A DNA stretch of 18,283 nucleotides, taken from positions 1-18,283 of the forward strand of contig NZ_PQWO01000044.1 in the NCBI RefSeq assembly GCF_003231495.1. The letters run 5' to 3'. Below the pieces are notes generated by a model. That model searched no databases. It saw only the letters and a list, made by a program, of their open reading frames with translations, and had not been told where the DNA came from. Positions within the stretch are counted from its first letter, which is position 1; each line of letters opens with the position of its first letter. A program made the position numbers and the translations under genes. Below are positions 1 to 18,283 of this stretch, piece after piece. This DNA is from Acaryochloris thomasi RCC1774 (GTDB lineage: Bacteria; Cyanobacteriota; Cyanobacteriia; Thermosynechococcales; Thermosynechococcaceae).

Positions 1-127
1 TACGCCAACGCGTCTCAAGATTGGTGCGCAAGACACTGTCATTCTCCAAAAAGCTAGAGAATCATATCGGTGCTATTTGGTACTTTATTCACCATTACAA
101 TCAATCCTTACCTATTTAGGACTACCA
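1..127 (+). mobile_element. IS1-family insertion sequence, inner (transposase 3') end only; the element continues beyond the window start
   Basis: nt 1-127 are a perfect reverse complement of 18157-18283. The region contains the transposase C-terminus and stop. The last bases, read from outside the element, are GGTAGTCCTAAATAGG, resembling the IS1 terminal inverted repeat (GGT[A/G]ATG...). Confidence 0.8.
3..119 (+). CDS. IS1-family (InsB-like) transposase, C-terminal 38 codons plus stop; 5' part lies outside the window
   Basis: Frame 3 reads RQRVSRLVRKTLSFSKKLENHIGAIWYFIHHYNQSLPI*. The RL-RK-LSFSK...H-YN block matches the C-terminus of IS1 InsB (..[32 protein letters not shown]). The TAG stop is at 117-119, 7-8 nt from the repeat boundary, as in IS1 where insB ends inside the IR. 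Confidence 0.8.
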   Translation, partial: RQRVSRLVRKTLSFSKKLENHIGAIWYFIHHYNQSLPI

Positions 128-203
128 GAGATTTGTCATGGTGTGGAAAGTATAGCTGAGGCTCTTTTTAGAAAAGTATTTCGGGGTTTATATCGCCTGT
201 TTG

Positions 204-237
204 GGTCGAGAACGCAAACGCAGTAACATTCTCGACC
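204..237 (-). other. Hairpin (9-bp stem GGTCGAGAA/TTCTCGACC, 16-nt loop) 16 nt downstream of the phnE stop; possible transcript-end structure
   Basis: The inverted repeat was read directly at 204-212 and 229-237. No U-tract follows on the minus strand, so it is not a canonical intrinsic terminator. Confidence 0.3.
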
Positions 238-252
238 TCTTTCAGCATTCCT

Positions 253-1977
253 CTATGTCGACCGCATCTGCTGACTAATCCCATCGACTAAAAACGTCAA
301 CAATACAAAGCATCCTAAGGTAAGGGTCAAACCTGAATAGTCAAAACTGCTGAGCTGTTCAGTCATTAAACGCCCCAATCCCCCGGCTCCCACTAATCCG
401 ACAATGACGGTTTCTCGAATGCAGACTTCCCAGCGGTAAAAGATATAGGCCACAAAGCGTCCAAGATTCTGCGGTAAGACACCGTAGAGAACAATTTGTT
501 CTGGGGAAGCGCCGAGTGTCTGCAGCGCTCGTACCGGTCGATCATCAAGATTTTCATTCACCTCCGCCATCAAGCGCCCCAAAATGCCGAGGTTGTGAAC
601 GGCCAACGCCAGCACCCCCGGCCACACACCAGGGAATAGTACAAACAAAAAGACTAAGGCCCAAATTGGTGCGGGAATGGCCCGACTGACCAGTAGTAGT
701 AAGCGGCTGCATAGAAATAGGCTTGTGGCTCCGAGAGATCGCGTTGTCTCTCCTTGGGGGTACAGCCATCCCCCCGGTAGTAAAAAGGTTCGCGCCGCCG
801 GGAATGACAGGAGAATGCCACCAGCTCCGGCAAGAGCAGCGGCCAAAATTGACATCGATAGAGTCAGACTCGACAGGTGAAGTAAGTTCTGAAGGCTATA
901 AAAACTCGGCCATGCAGGGGCTGCATCTGTGAGGATTTCTTGCAAAAGCCTGTGGGTGCGAGGAGACCATAGCCGTTCCCAACCGATCCCCAGTCCCCAA
1001 AAGCAGAGGGGAATGGCTAAGGTGATCAGCCCCCAAGAGAGGGACAATGCCCCGTTGGGTCGATGGGGAAGGGCCAAGTCGTTGGGCCTGTTGCTGATCT
1101 CCCTGCAGGTCTGGAGATCTAAGCGGCTGGTGAAGCCCATTGTTTGCCGCATCCAGGCGCTCCACAAATCGACGGTCCCGTTGAGGATGATCAGGGCGTA
1201 GAAGCCAGTCCAGAGCTGTCTGTACTGCAGAGACTGCAGGCTCAGGAATATTTCATAGCCCAGCCCCCCAGCACCGATGACGCCCAAGACGGCGGCGGAA
1301 CGCAGGGAGCATTCAAAGCGGTAAGAGGCGTAGGACAGCAGGTTGGGGAAGGCTTGGGGCAACAATCCATAGAGCCAAGCGGCTGCGGGTGAGGCTCCGC
1401 TATTAAGCAGTGCGTTGAGGGGGGCTCGGGGGGTTGTATCTAAAATCTCGGAGAAGACTTTGGCCACGATGGCGCTGAATGGAATTGCGATCGCAACCAC
1501 CGCAACCACCGGATCGAGTCCTAAAATACTGAGAAAAAACAAGCCCCAGATCAGCTCATGAATCGCCCTCGGAAAGGCCAACAGCAATCGCATGAGTCGC
1601 CAAATCAGCGGTCCTAGCCAGCCCCCTTTTGCCGCCGGAGGCAGAACCGTTCGCCACCAGGTTGCTGACGTGAGTACGCCCCCTATAAACCCGAGGCCAA
1701 TGCTGAGGGTGGTGCCACAAACTGCGTAGGCAAAGGTCACTAACGTCGCTCGACCCATGACGCCCAAAAACTCAGGGTTGAGGTCCGGCGTTAGGCTGGC
1801 CTGCCAAAATTCTCCGAGCTGGCCGAGGCCGCCCCAGTTGATGAGTGCTGACTGTCCCTGGCTAGCGATGTATAGGGAGGATGCGATCGCAACCACCACT
1901 ATCGCCATCCACAGCATCTTCCGCGTCATGAGCGATGGACGAGCAGGCAGTTTAGCAACGGGAGGAGACGCAGACAT
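253..1977 (-). CDS. phnE: Phosphonate/phosphite ABC transporter permease, fused tandem PhnE-PhnE
   Basis: 574-aa hydrophobic ORF with a visible internal duplication. First half: LNSGASPAAAWLYGLLPQ..YRFECSLRSAAVLGVIGAGGLG. Second half: LQTLGASPEQIVLYGVLPQ..YRWEVCIRETVIVGLVGAGGLG. This is a PhnE-type signature. The ORF starts 24 nt after the phnC stop on the same strand. Confidence 0.85.
   Translation of the reverse strand: MSASPPVAKLPARPSLMTRKMLWMAIVVVAIASSLYIASQGQSALINWGGLGQLGEFWQASLTPDLNPEFLGVMGRATLVTFAYAVCGTTLSIGLGFIGGVLTSATWWRTVLPPAAKGGWLGPLIWRLMRLLLAFPRAIHELIWGLFFLSILGLDPVVAVVAIAIPFSAIVAKVFSEILDTTPRAPLNALLNSGASPAAAWLYGLLPQAFPNLLSYASYRFECSLRSAAVLGVIGAGGLGYEIFLSLQSLQYRQLWTGFYALIILNGTVDLWSAWMRQTMGFTSRLDLQTCREISNRPNDLALPHRPNGALSLSWGLITLAIPLCFWGLGIGWERLWSPRTHRLLQEILTDAAPAWPSFYSLQNLLHLSSLTLSMSILAAALAGAGGILLSFPAARTFLLPGGWLYPQGETTRSLGATSLFLCSRLLLLVSRAIPAPIWALVFLFVLFPGVWPGVLALAVHNLGILGRLMAEVNENLDDRPVRALQTLGASPEQIVLYGVLPQNLGRFVAYIFYRWEVCIRETVIVGLVGAGGLGRLMTEQLSSFDYSGLTLTLGCFVLLTFLVDGISQQMRST
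1487..1494. repeat. HIP1 octamer GCGATCGC
   Basis: Exact match read in sequence. Confidence 0.95.
1883..1890. repeat. HIP1 octamer GCGATCGC
   Basis: Exact match read in sequence. Confidence 0.95.
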
Positions 1978-2001
1978 TAACCAATCTCAAGGACCAAGAG
2001 C

Positions 2002-2757
2002 TTATCTACTCGAAGTAAACCGGTAGAGCCTGTCAATCATACCCTCAGTCACCTGAGACGGCGGCAGATCGAACTGTAGCTGTCCCTGGCATAGGCCCAA
2101 TAATCGCGTGCAGTACTGAAAAGCAAACTCAATATCATGGAGGCTCACCACCAGTGTCTTGCCAGCTTCCCTCGTCAGGCTTCGGAGTAAAGCCATCAAA
2201 TCATGGGACCGTGCCGGATCTAAGCTCGCAATCGGCTCATCGGCCAAGATAGCCACCGGCTGCTGCACCAGCACCCGAGCCAGCGCCACCCGTTGCTGTT
2301 CCCCCCCTGAAAGGCGATCGGCGCGGGCATAGAGCTTATCCGCAATGCCCACCTGCTCTAACGCTTGCACCACCGTTTCTTTGCTCTGCGGCCACAGCAG
2401 AGACCAAGCCGCCTTCCCCAACGACCAGTGCCCCAACTGCCCCGCATTGACATTGTGAATCACCGATAGATTCGTGACCAGATGATGTTGCTGATAAACC
2501 GTGCCCACCTGTCGCTGGATTCGCCGCCGTCTTCGAGGGCTAAGCTGACTCAAATCACGGCCTAAAACCGTCACCTGCCCTGTCGAAGGTACTAGGCTCC
2601 CATTCAAAAGATTGAGGAGAGTACTTTTACCGGCACCGCTGGGGCCAATCAATGCGACCCGCTCCCCCAGACCAATGGAGAGACTCAAATCGCTGAGGGC
2701 CATCACATCCCCAAACTGCCGGGAGACCTGAGCCAGCTCAAAGACAGGCTCACCCAT
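2002..2757 (-). CDS. phnC: Phosphonate ABC transporter ATP-binding protein
   Basis: Walker A GPSGAGKST, ABC signature LSGGEQQRVALAR, Walker B ILADEP, and H-loop SLHD. The start ATG overlaps the phnD stop (TAATG at 2755-2759). Confidence 0.9.
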   Translation of the reverse strand: MGEPVFELAQVSRQFGDVMALSDLSLSIGLGERVALIGPSGAGKSTLLNLLNGSLVPSTGQVTVLGRDLSQLSPRRRRRIQRQVGTVYQQHHLVTNLSVIHNVNAGQLGHWSLGKAAWSLLWPQSKETVVQALEQVGIADKLYARADRLSGGEQQRVALARVLVQQPVAILADEPIASLDPARSHDLMALLRSLTREAGKTLVVSLHDIEFAFQYCTRLLGLCQGQLQFDLPPSQVTEGMIDRLYRFTSSR

Positions 2758-3686
2758 TACTTAATCTTGCCGATCTGGCGACCAATCTTCTCGATCTGGG
2801 CATAGTTCTGATTCTCAGTCGGAATAAACTTGACCGCCCCAAACAAATCTAAAATCTCTTTTTCTTCAGGAACGCTGGTATCAAGGCGAGTTAACGCTCC
2901 TTGCAGCTTTTTAGTGAATCCAGTTCCATAGCGTTCTTCAACGGCTGGGCTTGCAACCCAGTGGTAGTCATAGTAGGGCGGCGTTCGCCAGATCACCTGG
3001 ACCTTAGCCTCATCCACACTCCCCTCTGTCAAGCGGCTGTCCCAGACCTGTGAGTTTAGAGCACCCACTTCAAACGTACCCGCCTCAACCAGCTTAATCG
3101 TCGCATCATGGTTCCCCGAAAATCCTACCTCGCCCTTTACTTCTTCCAGCGCGACCCCCGCCTGCTGCATGAAGTACTGAGGCATCAGCCGTCCCGAAGT
3201 TGAAGACTCGCTGCCAAAGGTCAGGGTGTGACCCTTGAGTGCCGTGAGGCCGCTTACCTCTTCAAAAGGCTGAACACCGCTATTGGCATTGGTAATGAAA
3301 ACGCTGGTGAACTGTTCATCAATATCGCGCTGGGCAATGGCTTGGGCGCCTGTCACCTGAAGGCGAGCCTGCACGCCCGTCAGTCCTCCAAACCAGACTA
3401 GATCTAAATCACCTACTTTGAAGGCCGTCACAGCAGCGGCATAGTCGGTCACTGGCTGATACTGAACGGGGACGTTCAGCTCTGACTCTAGATAGGCCGT
3501 GAGTTTTTCTGAAAGGCGCTGAATTTTTTCAGGATCCTGATCGGGAATGGCTCCAATCGCTAAAGGAGCAGCATCGACTCCATCGACCTCACCTGCAGGC
3601 TTCGGCGTTGGCTCTTGGCTAGCACAGGCGGCCAGCAATGAAACAATACTCCCCCACAAAATGACTTGTTGTTTGAACCGTTTCAT
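2757..3686 (-). CDS. phnD: Phosphate/phosphite/phosphonate ABC transporter substrate-binding lipoprotein (PhnD family)
   Basis: PhnD-like periplasmic binding protein at the head of phnC-phnE. I prefer the ATG at 3686, which gives MKRFKQQVILWGSIVSLLAAC, a lipoprotein signal with an LAAC lipobox. AGAGG lies 6 nt upstream of that ATG. The ORF track extends to 3866, but the extra 60 residues look non-coding. Confidence 0.8.
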   Translation of the reverse strand: MKRFKQQVILWGSIVSLLAACASQEPTPKPAGEVDGVDAAPLAIGAIPDQDPEKIQRLSEKLTAYLESELNVPVQYQPVTDYAAAVTAFKVGDLDLVWFGGLTGVQARLQVTGAQAIAQRDIDEQFTSVFITNANSGVQPFEEVSGLTALKGHTLTFGSESSTSGRLMPQYFMQQAGVALEEVKGEVGFSGNHDATIKLVEAGTFEVGALNSQVWDSRLTEGSVDEAKVQVIWRTPPYYDYHWVASPAVEERYGTGFTKKLQGALTRLDTSVPEEKEILDLFGAVKFIPTENQNYAQIEKIGRQIGKIK

Positions 3687-3890
3687 CTTCGACCTCTTTA
3701 GCATCATCACTGGAGAGCTAGGGTACAGTGCCCCCAACGGCCAATGCAAGATAGGTTGCCTCTCGCTGCTGACCCTTGAAGTCTGCCTACTGCTCCACAC
3801 CACAAGAACTAGAGCTCTAAGCAAGTAGACTGTAGCAGTGGTGTGTAGCTTTTGGCCGTCAACCAAGCGGTAAACTATTGATAGCTTTTT

Positions 3891-3912
3891 CCCATAGACT
3901 CTTGGCTATGGG
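3891..3912. promoter_or_regulatory. Inverted repeat CCCATAG-N8-CTATGGG in the phnD/ppgK divergent intergenic region; candidate operator
   Basis: Arms read directly at 3891-3897 and 3906-3912, about 30 nt upstream of the ppgK-like start. Confidence 0.2.
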
Positions 3913-3943
3913 CATAAAACATATAGCTGGAGTGACACCATAG

Positions 3944-4666
3944 ATGACAGATGCTGAGACGCAACCCCTGCAGGTTTTATCCGTGGACATTGGGGGCAGT
4001 GGTATTAAAGCAATGGTGTTGAATGAGACCGGTAAACCCATTACCGAACGTAATCGCATCAAGACCCCTCACCCCCCAACCCCCGACGCTGTCCTGGATG
4101 TGATCGCTCAATTAGCTACAGAACAAGGCGCCTTTGAACAGGTTTCTGTCGGTTTTCCGGGAGTGGTCCAACACGGCGTCACTAAAACTGCCGTTAACCT
4201 CACCGCCGAATGGCTTGGCTTTGACCTCGCCACAGCCCTTTCAAAGCGATTAGGAAAACCTGTACGTGTCGCTAATGATGCCGATATTCAGGGCTATGGC
4301 GCAATCTCAGGTAAAGGCGTTGAATTAGTATTAACGCTGGGAACTGGCTTTGGCTCTGCTTTGTTCGTCAACGGCCACTTGGTCCCCAACCTTGAAATGG
4401 CCCACCACCCCTTTCAAAAGCAGAAGACCTATGAGCAGCAGTTGGGTCGTAAAGCTCTCAAAAAGAAAGGTAATAAGACCTGGAATCGAAATTTAGCCAA
4501 AGCAATCGCTAATTTAGAACGACTGTTTAGCTATGATCAACTCTACATTGGGGGTGGGGAAGCAAAACGCATCAATATTGACCTGCCTCCGAACGTGACC
4601 ATGGTATCCAACGAAGCCGGTATTCTGGGCGGAATAGCATTATGGGGCGACAGCGGAGCTGATTAG
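3944..4666 (+). CDS. ppgK: ROK-family sugar kinase, short polyphosphate-glucokinase-like form
   Basis: N-terminal VDIGGSGIK (actin-fold phosphate-1 motif), GFPGVV, ANDADIQG and TLGTGFG. The 240-aa size lacks the Zn-cysteine motif of classical ROK kinases, as in the short cyanobacterial polyP-dependent glucokinases. The donor specificity is inferred. Confidence 0.65.
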   Translation: MTDAETQPLQVLSVDIGGSGIKAMVLNETGKPITERNRIKTPHPPTPDAVLDVIAQLATEQGAFEQVSVGFPGVVQHGVTKTAVNLTAEWLGFDLATALSKRLGKPVRVANDADIQGYGAISGKGVELVLTLGTGFGSALFVNGHLVPNLEMAHHPFQKQKTYEQQLGRKALKKKGNKTWNRNLAKAIANLERLFSYDQLYIGGGEAKRINIDLPPNVTMVSNEAGILGGIALWGDSGAD

Positions 4667-5031
4667 CGAATCAAGCGATGCGCTTCTAACAGCGTCACCA
4701 TTTCTGCTGATGTTTCGGCATACCATGATTGGCCGGTACGAGGATCGTAAGCATGCCAGGCTACTTTTCCTGAAGGCCCCTGGATTTCTTCGAGACTGAT
4801 CTGATTTCGTTTGATGATAGTTTCTGTTAGCCGTTGCCATAGGCTTAAGTGACTTGAGACTGATTGTTTACTTCTCTCAAGCTGCTCCTTTTCTTGCTGT
4901 AGTAACGTCAACAACTGCCGATCTTGATGAACCTGAGCGACATCGGTGCGATGAGCTAACGTCTCTTCCATATTGGCTTGGTGCTGTTCTGGCTGCTGAC
5001 TCTGAACCGGAAAGTGAAGTGCATTTGCCAT
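4663..5031 (-). CDS. Hypothetical protein with a Gln/Glu-rich coiled-coil N-terminal half and a conserved-looking C-terminal WHAYDPRTGQSWYAETSAEMVTLLE module
   Basis: The first ATG is at 5031, with TAAGGA 8 nt upstream (the ORF track starts 2 codons earlier at TTG). The stop overlaps the ppgK stop. I do not recognise a function. Confidence 0.55.
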   Translation of the reverse strand: MANALHFPVQSQQPEQHQANMEETLAHRTDVAQVHQDRQLLTLLQQEKEQLERSKQSVSSHLSLWQRLTETIIKRNQISLEEIQGPSGKVAWHAYDPRTGQSWYAETSAEMVTLLEAHRLIR

Positions 5032-5451
5032 GATCAAAATCCTTAAACGTTCCCTACGTTATCTGTTGGTATCTTAGAGGTATTAAATAAAATCAAGCAT
5101 CACTCTGATAGAAAATATGGGAACTTTTTCAGCCTTTGGCAAAGAAAAAATACTCTTTCATTAATCAGATTTTCTTGGATCTATTACCTCTATATATAAT
5201 ACTTTTCAGCACTTCTATGACGCTTTACGCAGCAAAGTTTTGCAACGTTTTTTGTCCGAAAATTATATTCATACGGCTTCAATAATATCTTTCGTTGGCA
5301 GAGCAATAGGGGTATCAGCCGTGGCTTATGGGCTTGAGCAGAATTCATGTATTTCTATCCCAATTAAGCGAAAGAGGAAGGATAACCTCTGTTCATTTCG
5401 GCCCATGTTGAAATATCTCGTTTTGTGTAAGTGCGCTTGCCCACTGAAGTT

Positions 5452-5485
5452 GGGGCATGCCGAGAAATGTGTAAAAAGGCATAAG
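5452..5485 (+). repeat. Candidate Tn3-family terminal inverted repeat (GGGG...TAAG)
   Basis: GGGGCATGCCGAGAAATGTGTAAAAAGGCATAAG begins with GGGG and ends with TAAG like Tn3-family IRs. It lies about 100 nt beyond the tnpA-relic stop on the side expected for the IR. No partner copy exists in the window, so this is weak. Confidence 0.25.
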
Positions 5486-5588
5486 ATGGTTCTAGGACCT
5501 ATACATAGCAGAGCTTCTAGGGATCTAAGCTCTCAAGCCTTCAAGCCATTTAAATCACACTATACTCTTCCCAAAAGCCTTGTCCTAT

Positions 5589-5957
5589 CTAGATAAAATC
5601 TAGATCAATAGGAAGCTGAATCGCTTGTTCAAACGGCACCGGCATCGTCTCTATGTCCACCACGAAGTCACCAATGCGCTTCAGCTGCCCTACCAGAGAA
5701 GGACTCGTCGTTGCTAATGTCTTACGGTCAATGGGATTTCCCTCTGCACTAAGCTGCTGCATGATTAAAGACATATCCATCGCATTCTGGAAAATCACCG
5801 CACTGGCCGTCAGGTCCAAATACTTGAGCTGCCTCTCCTGCTCATCGGGATCCTGCTTAGTGATCACCTCATGCGTACCAAAATGCAACCAATCGAGAAA
5901 GTGGTGATAGGTCTCAACAATGTTGGTGCAAGCCGTTATCTGTGAAAAGCTGATGTT
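5589..5957 (-). pseudogene. Tn3-family transposase (TnpA), C-terminal ~123 codons only; relic
   Basis: My translation from 5957 downward reads NISFSQITACTNIVETYHHFLDWLHFGTHEVITKQDPDEQERQLKYLDLTASAVIFQNAMDMSLIMQQLSAEGNPIDRKTLATTSPSLVGQLKRIGDFVVD... It parallels the Tn3 TnpA C-terminus (..F.GR.GE....EDQ...L.L..NA...WNT.YM...L...G....L..L.P....HIN.LG.Y.F), but several invariant positions are changed. There is no N-terminal ~850 aa. Confidence 0.65.
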
Positions 5958-7268
5958 CTATCTGTTAGACATTGCAAAACTTCCTGATGCCTGAATTTGA
6001 ACTGAGACAGCCTGCTCCGTTGCAATCACCTGCTCGATCACGTCAGCGGCTTGATTGGCTCCGCCAGCTGTTTGCATGGCCTTTTGTAGCCTAACAGCAT
6101 TGTTTCTGTAAGATTTCATAACCAAAACTCGACGGATGGTGCTGCGCAGCCTGGAGACAGTCAAATCTTTTAAGGTGACGACTTCTCCGGCCCCAGTCCA
6201 GGCAATTCGGGCTGCGACCCCCGGCTGATCGTTGGTAATCGGAATCGCCACCATCGGCACACCGTTACTCAAAGATTCCAAAACTGTATTCATGCCTGCA
6301 TGGGTAATGGTCAGGGTGGCTCTTTGCAACAGTTCCAATTGGGGAGCATAGCCAACGACTAAAGGAGAGCCGGGTAAAATCGGCAGTGATTCTGGCGTAC
6401 TTCCGCCGCCTAGCGCAATCACCAACTGCACATTTAAGACTTGACAGGCTTCTGCAATGATCTCGAACGTGCCTAGCAAACGGTTCTGTAGCGTACCAAG
6501 GGAGGCATAAATCAGCGGTTGTCCTGTCAATTGATCAAAGGGAAAATCTACAGGTTCGCGGGTGTTCTGATCTGAGTAAGGCCCCGTAAAGTAGAAGTGA
6601 GCGGGTAAGGATTGTCTTGGATATTCAAATTCAGCTGGTTGCTGGCAGATCTGTGCGAGTGGAGAATAGAAATCATTTTGATGCTTGAGAGATGGCAAGT
6701 TCCACTGCTGTCGATATGTAGCAATCTGCCTCGTACTGGGTTGCGCAAGAATAGAAAGTAATTGGTAGCCTATTTGATTCCGTAACCGTGCCCACCAGGT
6801 TGCGGAGTAGCGCCAGCTGGTAAAGAAAGGAGGCACATTGGAATCTTGATTGAACATTAGAGCGCAAGCAACGCTGATAAAGGGCAGATCTAATCTCTGA
6901 GCAATGCTTGAACCGCCAACTAAGGCCTGATCAATCAGCAGAATTTCTACACCCATATTCTGAAGAGCAGCAGGTGCTTCTTCCAGCAGGGTTGCTGTTG
7001 CTTGCTTCATCAGCTCAATGGAGTATCGAAATGCAGCTATACCACTGAGCTGTCCTAGCTTATCTAAAGATTGGCTAGTGGAGCCAAAGGGGAACTTGAC
7101 TTCACCAATCGCCAGGAATTCTAATCCTGCAGCCAAAACTTTGGATTTTCCATCGAGAAGACCCACTATCGTTATGCGATGCCCTCGACGCTTCAGTTCA
7201 TGCCCTAGCGCCATCATTGGATTGAGATGACCATTCAGAGTAGGACAAAGGATGCCGATATGAGTCAT
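5958..7268 (-). CDS. GT1-family UDP-glycosyltransferase (MGT / CrtX zeaxanthin-glucosyltransferase-like)
   Basis: N-terminal GILCPTLNGHLNPMMALGHELKRRGHRITIV and the C-terminal donor-binding signature THAGMNTVLESLSNGVPMVAIPITNDQPGVAARI. The start overlaps the upstream IMPase-family stop (ATGA at 7265-7268). Confidence 0.85.
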   Translation of the reverse strand: MTHIGILCPTLNGHLNPMMALGHELKRRGHRITIVGLLDGKSKVLAAGLEFLAIGEVKFPFGSTSQSLDKLGQLSGIAAFRYSIELMKQATATLLEEAPAALQNMGVEILLIDQALVGGSSIAQRLDLPFISVACALMFNQDSNVPPFFTSWRYSATWWARLRNQIGYQLLSILAQPSTRQIATYRQQWNLPSLKHQNDFYSPLAQICQQPAEFEYPRQSLPAHFYFTGPYSDQNTREPVDFPFDQLTGQPLIYASLGTLQNRLLGTFEIIAEACQVLNVQLVIALGGGSTPESLPILPGSPLVVGYAPQLELLQRATLTITHAGMNTVLESLSNGVPMVAIPITNDQPGVAARIAWTGAGEVVTLKDLTVSRLRSTIRRVLVMKSYRNNAVRLQKAMQTAGGANQAADVIEQVIATEQAVSVQIQASGSFAMSNR

Positions 7269-8068
7269 AAAACTATCTTCCTGGGACGTAAATAACGCTG
7301 GTAGGCTTCGTGAGCAATTTTCTTGCTCGCGCTGGCGATGTAGCAGAAGTTGTAAGTGCGGAGTTTTTTAAGGTCTCCTAGAATGGCAAACACGTCTGAA
7401 CATTCAGTGAAATCCTGGCCTGTCTCATCGATCAAAGCCCCTCCCATTTGTTTGAGAAATGCGATCGCACCACAGACATCCCAAAAAGCCCCTTTGCCCA
7501 TAAAAGCAAAGTCGAGTCGGGGTCGCTGACGATTGCGGGAGTCACAGCACCATAAAAGCGTAGGCACCGCCGCCCCTAATTGACGACGCTTAAGAATGAG
7601 ACCTTGAAGCTGCAGGTTTTCAAAAGTGCTATCAATACCGTAGAACTGTGCTTCGGTTAACGTGTTGAGCGGTTTGATCAGCGGGGTAACCTCTTGGCTG
7701 AAGAAGATCTCGCCGGTGAAGGGCAAGGCAATCATCCCGCTTTCGACGACACCTTCTCTCACAAAGCCAATGGAAATAGCCCATAAAGGGATTCCTGCTT
7801 TGAAATTAGCCGTTCCATCTAGGGGATCGACCACAAACCACGTTCCGTCTTGGGAGGGTTTATCTTGCTCATCTTCCTCGGCCACAATTCCCGCAGCCGG
7901 AAAGTGCTGTTCAATCGCAGCAAGAATCCTGCGCTGTGATTGCCGATCTACTTCTGAGACAAGGTCATAGGAATGAGTTTTGCTTTGGAACGTGACATTT
8001 GGATCAGTGAACGCATGCTTTTGATACTGGGCAACTTCTGCAACTGCCTGTGACAAGGCTTCAATCAT
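7265..8068 (-). CDS. Inositol-monophosphatase-family phosphatase (IMPase/SuhB/CysQ superfamily)
   Basis: Metal-site motifs VAEEDE, WFVVDPLDGTANF and WDVCGAIAFL (DPxDGT and WDxxAG signatures). Confidence 0.8.
   Translation of the reverse strand: MIEALSQAVAEVAQYQKHAFTDPNVTFQSKTHSYDLVSEVDRQSQRRILAAIEQHFPAAGIVAEEDEQDKPSQDGTWFVVDPLDGTANFKAGIPLWAISIGFVREGVVESGMIALPFTGEIFFSQEVTPLIKPLNTLTEAQFYGIDSTFENLQLQGLILKRRQLGAAVPTLLWCCDSRNRQRPRLDFAFMGKGAFWDVCGAIAFLKQMGGALIDETGQDFTECSDVFAILGDLKKLRTYNFCYIASASKKIAHEAYQRYLRPRKIVL
7461..7468. repeat. HIP1 octamer GCGATCGC
   Basis: Exact match read in sequence. Confidence 0.95.
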
Positions 8069-8112
8069 AGTTTTGGCTTGACTTAACCAAGGATGTTTGT
8101 GATTACGGGGCC

Positions 8113-8517: not shown

Positions 8518-9008
8518 AATTCAATTCCTCTTAATTGAGACCTGATATTGAACGGTAAGCCCTCCAGTCCATGCGCAGTAAGGGCCATGAGAACAAAGAG
8601 CCTGTCTCATTAATGTATTTCACTGATTTCGTTTTTGTTAACTAGCAATAGGAACAGAGTTGATGGCTAGCAGAACTAATAGTTTTAGCCAATCGCTAAA
8701 ATATTCTGCTTGGCTGCAGCCCCCAACTGCCTAGAAGAATCAATAGGTGAGCTTATACTGGCTATCTCTTTTTCTCTCGAAAATCTGTCGCAATATGGAG
8801 TATGGGATTCGCTTAACTGTTTTCAAAAAATAATTTCTAATCCTGACTAAATATGGAGTTACGAAAATATTGCCTATACAAATAGGCTAAGGGAACGTTG
8901 ATTCTGAACTAGAAATTTAGTCTTTTCTCTTATCCGAACTCTCCGCACACATATCAGAATCGGCTCAAATCTCACTGTTTTAAAAGTGATTGATGAGCCT
9001 CAATTACT

Positions 9009-10715: not shown

Positions 10716-10798
10716 ACGCAGACAGAGACATAAACCTATGCCACTTATGTCAAGTCAGCGACCCATACAGTCACGGAACATTCTGTCAGGAATACCCA

Positions 10799-11404: not shown

Positions 11405-11482
11405 CGTCAGAATTTATGTCTGTGTACCTCCAGAATTACAGTCCCGCTACTAATTGATTCAATACGGAAAAACTAATGTTAT

Positions 11483-12898
11483 TTAAATGTTTACTCCATT
11501 CGACAGCATTAGATTATAAAGCGCCTGAAGACGAGTTTTTGCCTCAAGTTTAGCGACAATATTATTGATATGAAACTTGACCGTACTGTCACTGATGTAG
11601 AGTTTTTCAGCAACGTCGCGATCGCGAAATCCCTGCACCAAAAGCGCAATCACCTCCTGCTCTCGATTAGAAAGCGTTTGCTTGCCCGAAGCATCACCAC
11701 TGAGTCCCCAGGTCTCACCTCTTGTTACGTTCTCAACAGCCTCCTGTAGCTGATCTGGCGTGATGGAGAGACTAACGTGAGCTTTCGCCTGATGCGGCGC
11801 AGCGGCGCTGTGGTCAACCCAAAGAACGCGGTCATTATCACAACTCTCCGCTAAAGATGCCTGATCGGTGAGTAGCGGTATGCGCTGGTCGTCATGATTA
11901 CAAACTATGAGTCCCGCTGAATAGGCAAGCTGAGTGAATCCCATTTGCAGCAGCGGAGACGCGCATTGAATTCGCAGAGAGAGTCCCGAACGACTGATCG
12001 AAGATGCAAATGTTAAAGAAAACTGAATCGCCTTAATGCTGTTTTCTGTATTAATTTTGAGGACGCCACCGAAACATGATGCCACTAAAGATAAATGACC
12101 AAATGTTGACCGCTCCCACTCTGCTTGCTCCTGAGCGGGTATGGAAGCGGATGCGATTGCATCTAGAACAATCGACTCTGACCCATAGGTCAAACGACAG
12201 TAGGTGCAGTCTAGCGCCTTCAGAATTTCAGCCGCTTTTAAAAAGACTTGACTCTGAGACAGCTCTAGACGCCTCTCAGTTCCTAGAACGGTCAGTGTTG
12301 TCTGACCCATGATGTAAGCGAGGTTATCAGATAGTGAAAAATCGACAAGAGTATTTTTGGTCTGCTGGGTATCTAACGTCTGCACCTTTTGTTGATGCAG
12401 TGAGGCTAGGTCTAAGGCCACGGTTAACGTTGTACAAAGGCTGGACAATATCTTTAAAAACTCTGCCTCCATAGGCCGATGGCTGAAGACCGCCAAGACC
12501 CCAATCACTCGGTCAGCATTGGCTAACGGATAGCCCGCAAAGCCTTTGAGATTATTTGCGATCGCCCAGTCTGGATCTCTAACCCAAGACTCATCTGCCA
12601 AGTTGTTGCTCAATAGAGAGACACGGTTTTGGGCAATTCTGCCAATCTTGAATGCACCCATCGGAATGCGGCTATAGGAACCATCGATACGGGTATATAA
12701 CCCAGAGGAGGCCACCAACTTCAACCTGTTGCGATCGGGTTCAACCAGCCAGATCCGAGCAAAGGCGCAGTCAAACTGTTCCACGATGCCTTGGGTTGCA
12801 AAGCGAGCAATTTTCTCAGTATCAAGGGAGGTCGAAAACTGTTGAGAAATTTTGTTGGCTTGCTCCAAGTCCCAGACCAACATTGTGTTGTTAAGCAT
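11483..12898 (-). CDS. GAF-sensor LuxR-family transcriptional regulator
   Basis: N-terminal GAF domain (FDCAFARIWLVEPDRNRLKLVASSG...GFAGYPLANADRVIGVLAVFS), an unassigned central region of ~230 aa, and C-terminal LuxR HTH LSNREQEVIALLVQGFRDRDVAEKLYISDSTVKFHINNIVAKL. The first ATG is at 12898 (the ORF track begins at a TTG, 12907). Confidence 0.8.
   Translation of the reverse strand: MLNNTMLVWDLEQANKISQQFSTSLDTEKIARFATQGIVEQFDCAFARIWLVEPDRNRLKLVASSGLYTRIDGSYSRIPMGAFKIGRIAQNRVSLLSNNLADESWVRDPDWAIANNLKGFAGYPLANADRVIGVLAVFSHRPMEAEFLKILSSLCTTLTVALDLASLHQQKVQTLDTQQTKNTLVDFSLSDNLAYIMGQTTLTVLGTERRLELSQSQVFLKAAEILKALDCTYCRLTYGSESIVLDAIASASIPAQEQAEWERSTFGHLSLVASCFGGVLKINTENSIKAIQFSLTFASSISRSGLSLRIQCASPLLQMGFTQLAYSAGLIVCNHDDQRIPLLTDQASLAESCDNDRVLWVDHSAAAPHQAKAHVSLSITPDQLQEAVENVTRGETWGLSGDASGKQTLSNREQEVIALLVQGFRDRDVAEKLYISDSTVKFHINNIVAKLEAKTRLQALYNLMLSNGVNI
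11618..11625. repeat. HIP1 octamer GCGATCGC
   Basis: Exact match read in sequence. Confidence 0.95.
12558..12565. repeat. HIP1 octamer GCGATCGC
   Basis: Exact match read in sequence. Confidence 0.95.
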
Positions 12899-13233
12899 AG
12901 TCGGCAAATCTTTAATCAGAAACGTCTCAAGAAAATAGACTGCAGATATCTAAAAAATAGAGACTCTAGCTGAGACTCTCCACAGCCTCTCTCCTCAAAA
13001 GCCTGTGACTTAAGTTTTACGAAAGATTCAACGCCTTCCGTTTGTATTGAGTGAAGGTCATCATGAACTCCCACCCAGACCTAGTCACCACAAAATAGAT
13101 AGGGGAAGTGCCTGCTCTACTGAAGGCTGGTTAGATATCGGCTCAGTCGATCCCTTGAGTCGATTTCTCCCTGCACACCGCAAGTCAGACATTGATGAAG
13201 CTTTAGCTAGATTGACAGGTTTGCTCAGCCTGT

Positions 13234-13249
13234 TGTGATTGTAAACACG
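13234..13249. promoter_or_regulatory. Imperfect CRP-like palindrome TGTGATTGTAAACACG (GTG-N8-CAC)
   Basis: Read directly, about 145 nt upstream of the S9 peptidase start. The left half TGTGA is perfect and the right half is ACACG versus the consensus TCACA. A TTGACA hexamer sits at 13212-13217. Confidence 0.2.
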
Positions 13250-13394
13250 TTCTTTCACTTGATTGCTTCTTGATTTTAGGGGCTTTGCCCACAACTTTCC
13301 ATGACAAAAGTCATTCATCAGCGTGACTTCCCGATATGGGAGGGGCTGACTGTAGCTTGCTAAATTCACACTATGGCCCACCTCTAGAGTATTG

Positions 13395-15416
13395 ATGATG
13401 CCAAAACTTCAACGATATACAGGTCTAATTCTCATGGCTAGCTTGATGGGGCTTGTTCCCCTGGTGCACATTGCTGAAGCCTCTAGCGCTGCGACCCAGC
13501 CGCCCCTAATCAAGCGAGAACTGTTCTTCTCTGACCCAGATATTTCTGGTGCCCAGCTCTCCCCAGACGGTCGATTTCTCGCCTTCCAAAAGCCATTGAA
13601 CGGAATTATCAATGTTTGGGTTAAGGGCATTAATGAACCAATGGAGGCTGCTCGTCCGATCACAGCTGATGCCAACAGCCCGATCATGGTCTATTTCTGG
13701 AGCGCCGATGGCCGCTACATTCTCTATGGTCAGGACAAAGGGGGGAATGAAAATTTTCGTCTCTACGCGGTCTCACCAGAGACGGCGGGTGATCAGACCA
13801 AGGCGCGCGACTTAACGCCCTTTGAAAACGTTGCCGCCCAGCTTTATGCCGTCCCAAAGCAGACGCCTGATGAAATCATCATTGGCCTTAATGACCGCAA
13901 CCCACAGGTGCATGATGTTTATCGGCTAAATCTGACAACAGGCAAGCGGACGCTGATTCTCAAAAACGAGCAGAACATCGCAACTTGGATGACTGACTTA
14001 AAGGGGACTGTGCGCTTGGCCTACCGACAGACCCTAGAGAGAGGCAACGAAATTCTCAAGGTCGAAGAGGGTAAACTCACGCCGATTTACACCTGCAAGA
14101 TTGAAGAGACCTGTGCCCCCATTCGCTTTCATCCTGATGGTCAGCGCGTCTACTTACAGACGAACCGAGACGTGGATCTGATTCAACTGGAGCTGCTCAA
14201 TGTAGAGACTCAGAAGAGTCAAACGGTGGAGTCTGATCCTGAAAAGCAGGTGGATTTTGGCGGTGCATTATTCTCACAGGTAACGGATGAGTTGATTGCG
14301 ACCTATTACGTGGGCGATCGCAGCCGAATTTATCCGAGAAACAACTCGCTAGCCGCTGATATAAAGTACCTCCGTCAACAGCTTCCTGATCTGGAACTCT
14401 CTGTTGGGTCTGTCACGCGGGATGATCGCCTCGCTCTGATTGATGTGCAAAGCGATATCAATCCAGGTGCGACGTACCTATTTGATCGCAAGGCCCAAAC
14501 GTTGAAAAAACTCTATGATGTGCGGCCAGACCTGCCGAACGAACACCTAGCTGCTGTCAAACCAATTCGCTATCGATCTCGTGATGGTCAAGAGATTCCG
14601 GCTTATCTGACGTTGCCCAAAGGCGTTGACCCTAAAAATCTTCCTGTGGTTGTCTTTCCCCACGGTGGACCTTGGGGACGAGATTTCTGGGGCTATAGTG
14701 GCGCAGCTCAATTTTTTGCCAATCGTGGCTATGCTGTCTTACAGCCTAACTTTCGCGGGTCTACAGGCTACGGGAAAGCCTTTCTCAATGCCGGAAATAG
14801 GGAATGGGGAACCGGCATCATGCAGCACGATATTACGGACGGAGTGAAGTATCTGATTGACCAAGGCATTGCCGATCCCAAGCGAGTTGGGATCTCAGGG
14901 ACTTCCTATGGTGGGTATGCGACTCTGGCTGGATTAGCGTTTACGCCCGATCTCTATGCTGCCGGGGCTTCGGTTGTCGGTCCATCGAACCTGATGACGC
15001 TGCTGAATTCAATCCCGCCCTACTGGGCACCGATCAAAGCCATGTTTTCTTTGCGCGTCGGGGATCCAAATAATCCTGAAGATCAGGCTCGCCTTAAGGC
15101 CCAATCTCCTTTGTTCTCTGCTAATAAAATTCAGGCTCCGCTGCTGGTGATTCAAGGCGCGAACGATCCCCGCGTTAAGCAGGCAGAATCAGACCAAATT
15201 GTGGTGGCTCTGCGAGAGCTAGGCAGACCTGTGGAATACCTAATTGCTCCAGACGAAGGTCACGGCTTCCGTAAAGAAATCAATCTATTGACGATGACGG
15301 CGGCACTAGAGCGCTTCTTCGCCCAGCATTTGGGAGGACGCTACCAAGAAGAGATGTCTCCTGAGCTTCAGGCTCAGCTCAAGACCTTGACCATAGATAT
15401 CGACACAGTGCAGTAA
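13395..15416 (+). CDS. Secreted S9-family serine peptidase (prolyl oligopeptidase / dipeptidyl-aminopeptidase / acylaminoacyl-peptidase type)
   Basis: N-terminal signal peptide (..[19 protein letters not shown]|SS) and a long beta-propeller-type N-terminal region. The C-terminal catalytic domain has GTSYGG (Ser codon at 14904-14906), then QGANDPRV (Asp) and DEGHGF (His) in S9 order. The ORF track starts at the TTG at 13392; ATG codons lie at 13395 and 13398. Confidence 0.88.
14314..14321. repeat. HIP1 octamer GCGATCGC
   Basis: Exact match read in sequence. Confidence 0.95.
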
Positions 15417-16028
15417 ATGCTGAAACTCAAAAAGACGCCTCCATGGCAGCAAGACTGGAAAGATTTGACCTATCTTCTTGACGGTACAGCCACTCAACAA
15501 GCTGCCTACTCTGCCCTGGACTCACTCCAGATGGCTTCTTTACTCCAGCGCTTTGATCCGATTTTGGTCGGCACTATCCCGCTGGATATTGACATTCCTG
15601 GTAGCGATCTTGATATCGTCTGCTGTACTGCCAACGTAGATGACTTTGCTCAGTTTCTATTTGAGACCTTTAGCCACTACCAGAACTTTGAGCTGCGGCG
15701 GAAACGTGTGGGTGGTGTGGAAAGTGCGATCGCAACCTTCACCCACCAAGACTTCCCCATCGAACTCTTCGGTCAGCCACGCCCCACACTGTCTCAAGCC
15801 GCCGTTCGGCATCTAGACGTGGAAGCCCGTCTTCTGCACTACAGCAGCGAGAAAGTGCGCCAGCAGATGCGTCAACTGAAAAGCCAAGGCTTCAAAACGG
15901 AACCCGCTTTTGCGATCGCCTTTTCGCTAATTGGAGACTCCTACCAAGCGTTATTGGACCTTTCGGATCAGCCGGATGAGGTGTTGATCTCCATCATCTC
16001 CGCCTCAAAACTAAACATGGAGAACTGA
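15417..16028 (+). CDS. DUF4269-type nucleotidyltransferase-fold protein, function unknown
   Basis: LVGT-x10-DLDIV (hG[GS]-x9-13-DhD NTase-like pattern; Asp codon at 15606-15608) and LKSQGFKTEPAF..GDSYQALL, which I recall as typical of DUF4269. The ATG immediately follows the S9 peptidase TAA with a 0-nt gap. Confidence 0.65.
   Translation: MLKLKKTPPWQQDWKDLTYLLDGTATQQAAYSALDSLQMASLLQRFDPILVGTIPLDIDIPGSDLDIVCCTANVDDFAQFLFETFSHYQNFELRRKRVGGVESAIATFTHQDFPIELFGQPRPTLSQAAVRHLDVEARLLHYSSEKVRQQMRQLKSQGFKTEPAFAIAFSLIGDSYQALLDLSDQPDEVLISIISASKLNMEN
15726..15733. repeat. HIP1 octamer GCGATCGC
   Basis: Exact match read in sequence. Confidence 0.95.
15912..15919. repeat. HIP1 octamer GCGATCGC
   Basis: Exact match read in sequence. 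Confidence 0.95.
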
Positions 16029-16031
16029 AGA

Positions 16032-16817
16032 ATGGTAGATACCCCTCTCTACGTTGAAAAATCTGGAAATCCAGACGGTCCTACCCTCATCTTTTTGCAC
16101 GCCATCGGGACCAGTGGTTGGATGTGGCAGAACCAAGTCAAGCTGTTGAGTCACTTCAACTGTATCGTTCCTGATCTACCCGGCCACGGCAATAGTAATC
16201 ATATTCCTTGGCAGTCTTTTGCAAAGACAGCCCAGTTAGTGACTAATTTGATTCAGGTCCATGCCAAGTCTGGGAAAGCAAATATTGTGGGCCTTTCTTT
16301 AGGTGCATACGTGAGCTTGCAACTGCTCTCTGACTCTCCATCAGTTGTTGAGCGTGCTGTCTTGAGTGGTGTGCATATCCTCCCCATGCCCAACAAGCAG
16401 CTAATGATGATGATGAGTTATCTGATGATGCCTTTCATGCGGTCAAGCTGGATGGCCCACCTGAATGCAAATGCTCTGCACATTCCCCCAGAGCAGTTCG
16501 ATGGATATCATCGCAGCTTCAGGCAGATGTCTCGACAAGCCTTTCTGAAAGCAAGTGGAGACGCCGTGAACTTTGAAGTGCCAGAGAATATCAGCTCTAT
16601 CGCGGTCCCGACCCTGATTACCGCAGGGGAAAATGAGCAAGCCCTGATCCACAAATCTCAGCAGGCGCTGGTGAAAATGACACCTCATATCGAAGCCTAC
16701 ATTGCTCCGAATGTTGGGCATGGATGGAGTCTAGAAGCCCCCCAGTTATTTGCAGAGATGATTTATTCCTGGATTCAAGCGCAGCCCCTTCCAGATCAAC
16801 TACAGCCCGTTGTTTAG
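16032..16817 (+). CDS. Alpha/beta-fold hydrolase
   Basis: LIFLHAIGTSGWMW (oxyanion region), nucleophile elbow GLSLG (Ser89 codon at 16296-16298) and C-terminal PNVGHGW (catalytic His). It starts 3 nt after the DUF4269 stop. Confidence 0.85.
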   Translation: MVDTPLYVEKSGNPDGPTLIFLHAIGTSGWMWQNQVKLLSHFNCIVPDLPGHGNSNHIPWQSFAKTAQLVTNLIQVHAKSGKANIVGLSLGAYVSLQLLSDSPSVVERAVLSGVHILPMPNKQLMMMMSYLMMPFMRSSWMAHLNANALHIPPEQFDGYHRSFRQMSRQAFLKASGDAVNFEVPENISSIAVPTLITAGENEQALIHKSQQALVKMTPHIEAYIAPNVGHGWSLEAPQLFAEMIYSWIQAQPLPDQLQPVV

Positions 16818-16898
16818 TGTTTGAGCTAGCAAGAGTCAAGCAAGATGTAAACGAATCGTTATTAAGCCAACACCAAGAGGCGACAGGAAACTAAAACG

Positions 16899-17087
16899 AT
16901 GGTCAATAAATCATGTAAGGGCTTTCTCAATCTCGTTATTGCTGCGATCAAAATTGAGCTCTTTATTCTGTTGATATTGGGGATGCTGATTTTAGGATAC
17001 ACGGTTGCAGTTTCTCTCAGCGATCCTGCACCTCCTGTACCAGAAAAATCTCCAGAAACCGAGGATGAAAAATATTTTTACGCTTAA
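16899..17087 (+). CDS. Small hypothetical single-pass membrane protein (62 aa)
   Basis: One hydrophobic helix (LNLVIAAIKIELFILLILGMLILGYTVAV) followed by an acidic Pro-rich tail. AGGAA lies ~9 nt upstream of the ATG. No homology recognised. Confidence 0.4.
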   Translation: MVNKSCKGFLNLVIAAIKIELFILLILGMLILGYTVAVSLSDPAPPVPEKSPETEDEKYFYA

Positions 17088-17119
17088 ATTTAGACCCAAT
17101 CATTTTTACCTCAAGCACC

Positions 17120-17311
17120 ATGAAAAAAGATCATAAAAAGCGAACCGTATTCGCACCTCAATCAGCACTGGACGCATCTGCCCAAGAACCTGCAAATCGC
17201 GTGATTAGTGTTGAGTTAGCCGAGGATGAGGACGTCCAGTGGATATGGATGTCGTTGCCTGAGGGTACAGCCTATGTCAGTGGCTACAACATCATCAAGA
17301 AAAAATCATGA
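17120..17311 (+). CDS. Small hypothetical soluble protein (63 aa)
   Basis: Lys-rich termini and an acidic core (VELAEDEDVQWIWMSLPEGTAYVSGYNII). No clear Shine-Dalgarno sequence and no homology recognised. Confidence 0.3.
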   Translation: MKKDHKKRTVFAPQSALDASAQEPANRVISVELAEDEDVQWIWMSLPEGTAYVSGYNIIKKKS

Positions 17312-17327
17312 GAAAAGGAATCTATCT

Positions 17328-17573
17328 ATGGCTTCTGAAGATAGCGATCTTAGACAGCGCTCTGCTTATAAAACTGCCTATCTTTTTTTAGGCGGTATTG
17401 CAGTTGGGGCTTTGACAATGCTTATTCTTGACTCATTTTTTCCGGTTGAGTTGAATGCGTTGAATGTGGGGATTGCAACAATTGTGATTGTATCGTCCGG
17501 GTTACTATCGAGCATTTTTGGCAAGAGCTTTATCAACGCATTGATGGATATATTAGGGTCTTCAAGTTTATAA
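17328..17573 (+). CDS. Small hypothetical two-helix membrane protein (81 aa)
   Basis: I prefer the ATG at 17328, which has AAGGA ~9 nt upstream and avoids overlap with the preceding ORF. It has two hydrophobic segments (AYLFLGGIAVGALTMLILDSFF and VGIATIVIVSSGLLSSIF). Confidence 0.45.
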   Translation: MASEDSDLRQRSAYKTAYLFLGGIAVGALTMLILDSFFPVELNALNVGIATIVIVSSGLLSSIFGKSFINALMDILGSSSL

Positions 17574-17590
17574 CCATAGTTGAGACATTG

Positions 17591-18058
17591 ATGGAAATTC
17601 GCAAATATATCCCTACAGACTGGCCGCGCCTTTGTAAAATTCATGATGCTGCTCGCCTCGACGAGCTTCGCCTTTCTGTGGGAGAAGCAGCATTCCTCAC
17701 TTTGGAGCAAACGGCCAAGAATGAGGGACTCTTTGATTCAAGTGTCGTCGTCGCAGAAGCTTCAGGCTGTGTTGAAGGTTTTGCTGCTTTTTCACAGGAC
17801 GAACTGACTTGGTTGTATGTCAATCCATTGGTCTATCGGCGAGGTATAGGCAGGGGATTACTGCGTTACGCAATCGAACATGCGGGCGATCGTTTTTCCG
17901 TCGAAGTGCTTGAGGGCAATGAACCAGCCCTCAAGCTGTATCTTTCTGAAGGGTTTAGCATTGCAAAAAAATCAAACGGTCGGCTTGCAGGAAACGAAGC
18001 ATTCAAAGCTTCAGGATATAGGCTTGAAAGGGCTTTGTTACAAAGTGACTCTTTTTGA
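17591..18058 (+). CDS. GNAT-family N-acetyltransferase
   Basis: Acetyl-CoA-binding motif A (WLYVNPLVYRRGIGRGLLRYAIEHA) followed by NEPALKLYLSEGF. 155 aa from the ATG at 17591 (the ORF track starts one codon earlier at TTG). Confidence 0.8.
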   Translation: MEIRKYIPTDWPRLCKIHDAARLDELRLSVGEAAFLTLEQTAKNEGLFDSSVVVAEASGCVEGFAAFSQDELTWLYVNPLVYRRGIGRGLLRYAIEHAGDRFSVEVLEGNEPALKLYLSEGFSIAKKSNGRLAGNEAFKASGYRLERALLQSDSF

Positions 18059-18156
18059 CAACGATAGATTAAGTATCACAGGCTTGGGAAAGAACTTGTA
18101 TTCTCAATAAATGGGACCCACTACAGTTAAGTGGACAGTTCCGTTTGAGCAGACGG

Positions 18157-18283
18157 TGGTAGTCCTAAATAGGTAAGGATTGATTGTAATGGTGAATAAA
18201 GTACCAAATAGCACCGATATGATTCTCTAGCTTTTTGGAGAATGACAGTGTCTTGCGCACCAATCTTGAGACGCGTTGGCGTA
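18157..18283 (-). mobile_element. IS1-family insertion sequence, inner (transposase 3') end only; the element continues beyond the window end
   Basis: Perfect reverse complement of nt 1-127; identity breaks at 18156 versus 128. Confidence 0.8.
18165..18281 (-). CDS. IS1-family (InsB-like) transposase, C-terminal 38 codons plus stop; 5' part lies outside the window
   Basis: Mirror image of 3-119 with an identical peptide. Confidence 0.8.
   Translation of the reverse strand, partial: RQRVSRLVRKTLSFSKKLENHIGAIWYFIHHYNQSLPI

Follow-up and report, generated by a model that had tools for sequence, protein, structure and literature searches.

Introduction

The insertion sequence IS1 forms composite transposons with its two copies in either orientation, Tn9 and Tn1681 being IS1-based examples and Tn1681 one in which the copies are inverted, and IS1 transposition is partly replicative. 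A cyanobacterial subgroup of the family is represented by complete elements, including a 781-bp element on Leptolyngbya boryana pLBX and 827-bp elements in the MAG MFD03250.bin.1.67. A further point of comparison lies outside biology, in the contig breaks that repeats induce in de Bruijn assemblies.

Here we analyse a stretch of 18,283 bp (hereafter, the window), which makes up one complete contig in the draft assembly of Acaryochloris thomasi RCC1774 (PZD70298/PZD70299; proteins P0121, P0241 and P0394). Like Tn9 and Tn1681, the window is bracketed by two IS1-family copies, here seen as right ends of 126 nt and inverted as in Tn1681; unlike these transposons, it has no selectable cargo and no second location in which it was seen among the plasmids and loci examined, and one of its borders lies inside a resident gene. 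Its terminal repeat and transposase C-terminus are alike to those of the cyanobacterial subgroup, whose members are known complete, whereas the window element is seen over 126 nt per copy only. With repeat-induced contig breaks the window shares terminal, identical arms as long as the largest SPAdes k and a repeat body missing from the deposit, the sole difference being that both of its ends reach the same end of the same IS. An earlier note, made from the sequence alone, had proposed that the 18 kb could move or flip as a unit. We consider it probable, instead, that the contig was broken at a collapsed IS1 repeat, that the genome carries two inverted copies of which the right one is a simple insertion, and that the segment between them has never moved or flipped.

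Results

The two ends of the window, positions 1-127 and 18157-18283, are 127-nt inverted repeats with 100% complementarity, as both a repeat search and direct reading of the ends established in agreement with the earlier note, and their identity breaks off at 128 versus 18156. A perfect repeat of this length cannot have arisen by chance. Each arm carries the right end of an IS1-family element, laid out as follows:

1-126, plus strand: IS1-family right end, left copy (final 126 nt; the body lies beyond the left contig end)
3-116, plus strand: C-terminal 38 codons of the transposase, with the stop codon at 117-119 (left arm)
104-126, plus strand: 23-bp terminal inverted repeat ATCCTTACCTATTTAGGACTACC (left arm)
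127, no strand: single flanking base A, the same at both junctions, bringing the perfect repeat to 127 nt instead of 126
18158-18283, minus strand: IS1-family right end, inverted second copy (final 126 nt; the body lies beyond the right contig end; homology as for the left arm)
18158-18180, within the minus-strand arm: terminal inverted repeat of the right copy

The IS ends at base 126 in the left arm and at base 18158 in the right arm, since similarity in every related element stops at ...TTAGGACTACC, the related elements ending in ...ACC. In an IS-free relative, the base homologous to 18157 is a flank base and belongs, at the right junction, to a Leu codon. Taken together, these two observations identify base 127/18157 as a flanking base that is coincidentally common to both junctions.

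Frame 3 of the arm translates as RQRVSRLVRKTLSFSKKLENHIGAIWYFIHHYNQSLPI, followed by a stop codon. Almost all of the 125 database matches to the arm bear the name "IS1 family transposase, partial", and named IS1 proteins agree with its C-terminus at 84-95% identity; tblastn and blastn both align it with annotated IS1 elements on plasmids of cyanobacteria. On its own, the 38-aa peptide aligns with PF03400 positions 97-126 at 21.3 bits, just below the cut-off of 24.1. It is identical at 36 of 38 residues to the closest complete IS1-family relative, an 827-bp element (L023) with the canonical layout of InsA, an A6G slippery site and InsB, whose fusion protein reaches 203 bits with NF033558 (cut-off 100) and 85 bits with PF03400; the arm thus belongs, through this relative, with the IS1-type DDE transposases. 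At the DNA level, 104-126 and 18158-18180 match the paired, GGT-starting repeats of about 23 bp of three complete elements (L001, L002 and L023), and the repeat form GGTAGTCCTAA..AGGTAAGGAT is common to the cyanobacterial IS1 subgroup and the arms. Of each copy, the window shows the right-end repeat only; the left-end inverted repeat of the IS would read GGTAGTCCTAAATAGGTAAGG.... Complete relatives measure 777-833 bp, and their target-site duplications, where identifiable, are 8 bp (L002, L019, L023, L051 and L112) or 9 bp (L076 and L079) long. These profile and database matches bear out the earlier assignment of the arms to IS1-family right ends, inverted and with the 3' end of each directed toward the interior.

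Across the arm, the closest relative at the DNA level has 86.6% identity, which indicates a distinct IS1-family member that probably has no existing name. The 38-aa peptide has no exact-sequence entry in the protein collection, and a scan of genome contigs with a 39-nt IS-end pattern returned 0 matches; a looser 21-nt inverted-repeat pattern retrieved 106 stretches from the genome contigs, none of them from A. thomasi. The metagenome scan yielded nothing beyond a relic (L007) and a contig end (L006); no full IS copy was among its matches. Two further candidates were set aside: P0043, a relic in another assembly that is unrelated to the window, and L028, from a different MAG, which beyond an IS1 end of 78% identity has nothing in common with it.

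The clearest evidence on how the copies came to lie where they do comes from the right junction, which falls within a regulator gene:

18127-18157, minus strand: tail of a MocR-type regulator gene (GntR HTH plus aminotransferase), comprising its last 10 codons (PSAQTELST and stop) and one base of the preceding codon

In a related MAG (contig L115, GCA_039814705.1), the orthologous gene of 498 aa, with the same GntR and aminotransferase parts, is intact and IS-free. L115 aligns with the window at 96% identity over 16316-18030 and at 91% over 18035-18157, and beyond 18157 it runs on into the intact gene, whose final codons correspond to window positions 18127-18156 on the minus strand. The 8-9 bases that a target duplication of the right copy alone would repeat are (G)CAGACGGT or GCAGACGGT, and the remainder of the mocR-type gene, as in L115 from position 2985, would follow them as AAATCATTCC... 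/ AAATCATTCCCTCTC.... Because the gene is intact and the site empty in this relative, the right copy is evidently, on sequence comparison, a simple insertion into resident, ancestral DNA, 10 codons short of the mocR-type stop. The earlier note had read this end as part of a candidate composite or invertible unit, and had named as signs of two independent insertions a separate target duplication at each copy together with relatives carrying the same DNA IS-free; half of that, at one end, is now in hand. The first 454 nt of L115 are of low complexity and unrelated to the window; they may reflect a chimeric metagenome join and are therefore not counted as a break in synteny.

The left junction has a different setting:

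128-252, no strand: left inner flank, non-coding, downstream of a PhnE-like permease gene, with no truncated ORF

A reading-frame check gave no truncated ORF adjoining the IS at the left junction, and no promoter or terminator consensus was found in the left flank. The corresponding contig of the related MAG, L117, stops inside the permease gene, short of this junction, and the contigs of this MAG are too short to reveal which way round the segment lies there. With two distinct junctions, one of them validated by a relative, the sequenced DNA must contain at least two right-end (IRR) junctions: there are two IS copies about 18 kb apart, inverted, with their right ends inward.

The interior between them comprises, among other genes, a transporter operon and a transposase relic:

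253-3866, minus strand: ABC transporter operon, collinear with L117
253-1977, minus strand: fused double permease of this operon
2002-2757, minus strand: ATPase of this operon
2757-3866, minus strand: substrate-binding protein, true start probably internal
5589-5888, minus strand: Tn3-family transposase relic, C-terminal 99 aa only, with 71% identity to Acaryochloris marina plasmids across 5325-5678

The Tn3 relic and the gene content listed in the earlier note are indeed present. Its phosphonate uptake module holds as a transporter operon but is weakened as to substrate, as the binding protein scores above the cut-off for a putative selenate-type SBP family and under that for PhnD. Two interior blocks are kept in the related MAG, 1229-5243 (collinear with L117 at 88.8% identity) and 16316-18157. 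The HIP1 motif occurs 10 times in the window against 0.26 expected, and the GC content is 49.0% versus 50.2% for the genome. With HIP1 abundant, GC near the genome mean and two blocks retained in a relative, the interior looks native in character on these sequence measures, which speaks against its description in the earlier note as accessory cargo. Megablast of the whole window against plasmids gave no match, and a more sensitive blastn against the same collection returned single-gene similarities only, to the Tn3 relic, a glycosyltransferase, a GAF-LuxR regulator and an S9 peptidase. No synteny with the window was seen in the pREC2 region of A. marina or in the neighbourhoods of two homologues of the window's DUF1400 hydrolase (68% and 56% identity). 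Searches of the window for tRNA genes and Rfam families gave no match.

Discussion

The arms are truncated by the contig ends and not by biology, and their length is most likely a product of the assembler. SPAdes has a maximum k of 127, and its defaults with 160-bp reads give a largest k of 77; 127 would need a pipeline setting. As the arm length equals the largest SPAdes k, it was likely set by the assembler. The genome was sequenced with 160-bp MiSeq reads at 20x coverage and processed with the Sequana pipeline, giving an assembly of 72 contigs, those under 1000 bp having been discarded, for a genome of 5.9 Mb and 50.2% GC (PMC6002478); the Sequana de novo pipeline runs SPAdes (PMC8477403). 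The k of this assembly is absent from the paper, and the value of 127 derives from the exact, symmetric 127-nt truncation. In such a model, the assembler would have met an IS1-family copy of about 0.8 kb at each contig end; identical repeat copies are merged by a de Bruijn assembler into one node, and a unique contig ends at the last k-mer that it has in common with the repeat, keeping exactly k repeat bases. A k of 127 would then leave two arms that are terminal, identical and 127 nt long, and the merged IS body, being shorter than 1 kb, would have been removed by the authors' size filter. Comparable truncations occur among GTDB genome contigs, in which 24 of 109 IS-terminus matches are cut at a contig end with 36-190 nt kept, and seven k141 contigs keep 136-141 nt of the IS terminus. 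Moreover, the same partial IS1 protein is found on up to 8 contigs within single draft assemblies. Given two flanking, randomly oriented copies, about one inter-IS segment in four should, like the window, reach the same IS end on both sides. We infer that k was 127, that the left copy was inserted independently, and that the two copies have at no time mobilised or inverted the DNA between them.

Any DNA enclosed by two IS copies could, in principle, be transposed as a unit or inverted, and both possibilities have to be weighed against a broken contig with independently inserted copies. It is unlikely that the window is the product of an inversion, in which the 18 kb would have been flipped relative to its ancestral order either by recombination between inverted copies or by duplicative inversion. 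By the latter route, replicative transposition to a nearby target would make a second, inverted IS copy and flip the intervening DNA. The standard model of replicative transposition leads, by our derivation, to the geometry X a[IS]t' S' a'[IS']t Y with the same ends inward, which the window shows, and the partly replicative character of IS1 transposition is compatible with it; however, one in two inverted pairs would be arranged so by chance, and no feature of the window separates an inversion from two insertions. Were the IS copies few, a separation of 18 kb in 5.9 Mb would also be improbable as a random outcome, and if the genome had two IS copies only, the spacing would be non-random and would point to a local event. 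We nevertheless regard as doubtful a genome with these two copies only, in which the 18-kb block, transporter operon and regulators included, was recently inverted, or is still invertible and potentially mobilisable.

Still more doubtful is a composite transposon in the manner of Tn9 and Tn1681, in which the outer (IRL) ends of both copies would move a unit of about 19.7 kb. Its appeal lies in the two identical right ends, inverted and matching over all 126 visible nt, that flank the segment, in the ability of IS1 to build such transposons in either orientation, and in the presence inside the segment of a Tn3 relic and of genes with A. marina plasmid homologues. Against it stand the native composition and HIP1 content of the interior and the position of the right border, within a gene that is unbroken across the site in a relative. 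In the related MAG, resident DNA runs on across an empty site that concerns the right IS and not the whole segment, and, the right border being inside a resident gene, any unit would sit at the original IS insertion site or carry a gene stump. Nor was a second occurrence of the 18 kb, in another genomic context, found in the plasmid collection or among the loci examined. Nothing, then, shows the segment to have moved as one or to invert, as the earlier note had envisaged, and that reading is unproven rather than refuted. Finally, it is highly improbable that the second copy does not exist and is due to assembly alone, such as a chimeric or hairpin contig with one spurious junction: although coverage was only 20x and contig ends are set by the assembler, the same IS end is joined to two different unique sequences, one of which the relative validates up to the junction base.

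Our preferred reading, a contig broken at a collapsed repeat, carries a caution: a whole draft contig with perfect terminal inverted repeats of k-mer size represents a repeat-broken assembly and not the limits of a mobile unit. Unit mobility or inversion, if true, would be a routine case of IS-mediated rearrangement. The biological content is modest: A. thomasi has an IS1-family element, probably unnamed, that is active or was so recently, and a copy of it has clipped the last 10 codons off a MocR-type regulator gene.

IS1-family arms at the ends of a complete contig

Nucleotides 1-127 and 18157-18283 are 100% reverse-complementary, with identity ending at 128/18156; both direct reading of the ends and a repeat search confirm the perfect inverted arms described in an earlier sequence-only note, and the assignment of these arms to the IS1 family made there is likewise supported. 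A perfect match of 127 nt cannot have arisen by chance, and the repeat search found no further long repeat in the window, the runner-up inverted pair being 39 nt at 77%. Used as a protein query, the 38 residues encoded in frame 3 of the arm (RQRVSRLVRKTLSFSKKLENHIGAIWYFIHHYNQSLPI*) gave 125 matches (64-97% identity); almost all bear the name 'IS1 family transposase, partial' or InsB, and PF03400 is assigned to many. Plasmid searches by tblastn and blastn matched annotated IS1 elements of Pseudanabaena, Leptolyngbya, Acaryochloris and Nostoc. Complete elements recovered by pattern scanning of GTDB genomes number 18 and measure 760-833 bp; a target duplication (8 or 9 bp) is identifiable in seven, and complete relatives carry paired terminal inverted repeats of 23-24 bp, GGTAGTCCTAA..AGG.AAGGAT. 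The nearest relatives of the arm (86.6% identical across it) come from a long-read MAG, as 827-bp copies that show the canonical IS1 layout: InsA with a zinc ribbon, the A6G slippery site, and InsB in the -1 frame; the 240-aa fusion protein reconstructed from them reaches 203 bits against NF033558 (cut-off 100) and 85 bits against PF03400, and its C-terminus is identical to the arm at 36/38 residues. The element itself is new to the known IS1 family. Since similarity stops in all relatives at ...GGACTACC, window position 126, the IS boundary lies at 126/18158, and base 127/18157 is a flank base common to both junctions by coincidence.

The DUF1400 hydrolase, PhnE-like permease and ATPase of the window are PZD70299/WP_110989142, PZD70298/WP_110989133 and PZD70305 of Acaryochloris thomasi RCC1774, and as the database contig of each is exactly 18,283 bp, the window is an entire contig. 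Both arms are terminal in it and cut at the identical IS coordinate, which argues for a deterministic process, the assembler rather than biology. Where a unique contig of a de Bruijn graph runs into a collapsed repeat, it stops with the last k-mer common to both and retains exactly k shared bases; SPAdes has a maximum k of 127 and, under defaults with 160-bp reads, stops at k 77. The genome was sequenced to 20x coverage with paired 160-bp MiSeq reads and assembled de novo by Sequana pipelines, 72 contigs being left after removal of those below 1,000 bp (PMC6002478), and the Sequana de novo pipeline runs SPAdes (PMC8477403). The assembly most likely dictated the arm length, for which we infer an undocumented k of 127, and the missing IS body beside the arms is accounted for by a collapsed IS node of ~0.8 kb falling below the 1-kb filter.

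An IS1-bounded contig is an ordinary finding. IS termini of this type are cut at a contig end in 24 of 109 matches in GTDB contigs, with 36-190 nt of IS kept; seven MEGAHIT k141 contigs keep 136-141 nt, and 'IS1 family transposase, partial' proteins of 26-70 aa cluster on up to 8 contigs in one draft assembly. With random orientation, roughly one in four segments flanked by two copies of one IS should have both right ends pointing inward.

The right copy and its empty site in a related MAG

Direct reading shows the identical IS end joined to different unique DNA at the left and right junctions, which implies at least two IS copies, or two insertion alleles.

Junction features
128-252, left inner flank, non-coding by ORF check, 3' of the permease gene
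18127-18156, minus strand, final ten codons of a MocR-type gene, PSAQTELST*, by match to L115

No truncated ORF lies next to the left IS. At the right, L115, a contig of the related MAG Cyanobacteria bacterium P01_A01_bin.17 (GCA_039814705.1), matches window 16316-18030 at 96.2% identity and 18035-18157 at 91%, past which it carries no IS and instead holds an intact 498-aa GntR-HTH plus aminotransferase (MocR-type) gene (L115 2955-4451), followed by a pyridoxamine-oxidase-like gene. By this alignment the right junction is an empty site in the MAG, whose gene runs intact across it. The right IS has thus gone into a resident gene, 10 codons ahead of the stop; the right edge of the '18-kb unit' is not one at which cargo would naturally end. 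Another contig of this MAG, L117, aligns collinearly with window 1229-5243 (88.8% identity) over the genes for the permease, ATPase, binding protein and ROK kinase and over the 124-aa ORF, and stops within the permease gene; the empty-site comparison covers the right junction alone.

L115 also carries, at 2308-2825 between its GNAT and mocR genes, an extra ~0.5-kb copy 84% identical to window 16630-17149, which lies upstream of the GNAT gene; this duplicate is absent from the window. Its first 454 nt are low-complexity (GA/CT and GTT runs), unrelated to the window and joined inside an alpha/beta-hydrolase gene at the point matching window 16316, and may mark a chimeric join in the metagenome, not a true rearrangement.

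Character of the interior

Interior features
2757-3866, minus strand, substrate-binding protein, TIGR04553 (putative selenate ABC transporter SBP), 360 bits against a cut-off of 250
4663-5037, minus strand, 124-aa ORF, no Pfam family
11483-12907, minus strand, GAF + LuxR-type regulator, 66-73% DNA identity to A. marina MBIC10699 pREC2
1487, 1883, 7461, 9120, 9749, 11618, 12558, 14314, 15726, 15912, HIP1 sites

The genes listed in the earlier note are present, but the supposed phosphonate-binding protein fits TIGR04553 and fails the PhnD profile (119 bits, cut-off 261); the substrate of the predicted transporter operon (253-3866) may be other than phosphonate. The 574-aa permease is a double PhnE-like fusion. 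GC ranges over 39-58% across 600-nt windows and is 49.0% overall against 50.2% for the genome, and there are 10 copies of the cyanobacterial HIP1 octamer GCGATCGC, where 0.26 would be expected. Megablast of the window against plasmids gave no match and sensitive blastn single-gene similarities only; neither A. marina pREC2 nor the surroundings of more distant DUF1400 homologues show synteny. HIP1-rich, near the genome mean in GC and with two blocks common to the related MAG, the interior does not resemble a recent import, which weakens its description as accessory cargo, and looks like resident, somewhat fluid cyanobacterial DNA with an old Tn3 relic.

This relic is the C-terminal 99 aa of a Tn3-family transposase within 5325-5888; 5325-5678, comprising its end and ~260 nt of adjoining DNA, shares 71% identity with A. 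marina plasmids NC_009932 and pREC2, where the counterpart is a transposase relic plus its neighbouring hypothetical gene. L117 stops at window 5243, just short of this region. No HIP1 site falls in 1884-7460 or beyond 15912, stretches that hold the ATPase, binding-protein, ROK kinase and glycosyltransferase genes and the relic. The 124-aa ORF resembles the PirA arginine-synthesis regulator motif weakly and below threshold (21 bits, cut-off 50) and its place beside the ROK kinase gene is conserved on L117 (229-597) of the related MAG. For the GAF + LuxR-type regulator, the pREC2 copy is the nearest plasmid-borne DNA homologue, and the genes around it are unrelated.

Probable simple insertion, with inversion and composite transposition as rivals

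Overall, the best explanation is a joint one, in which the contig broke at copies of a repeated IS and the right copy, at least, is a simple insertion into ancestral DNA. Simple insertion, composite transposon and inversion each predict their own target-duplication pattern. An inversion, arising either from recombination of the two IS copies or from replicative transposition within one molecule, appears unlikely here. The replicative route gives precisely two inverted copies whose same end points inward (X a[IS]t' S' a'[IS']t Y). Still less probable is a functional composite transposon acting through both outer (left, IRL) IS ends, as its right border falls inside a gene intact in the related MAG; the earlier proposal, composite transposon or invertible segment, lacks support, and gene continuity in L115 contradicts the right border as a cargo edge. 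Should the IS have just these two copies, with 18 kb between them in a genome of 5.9 Mb, inversion would become the favourite.
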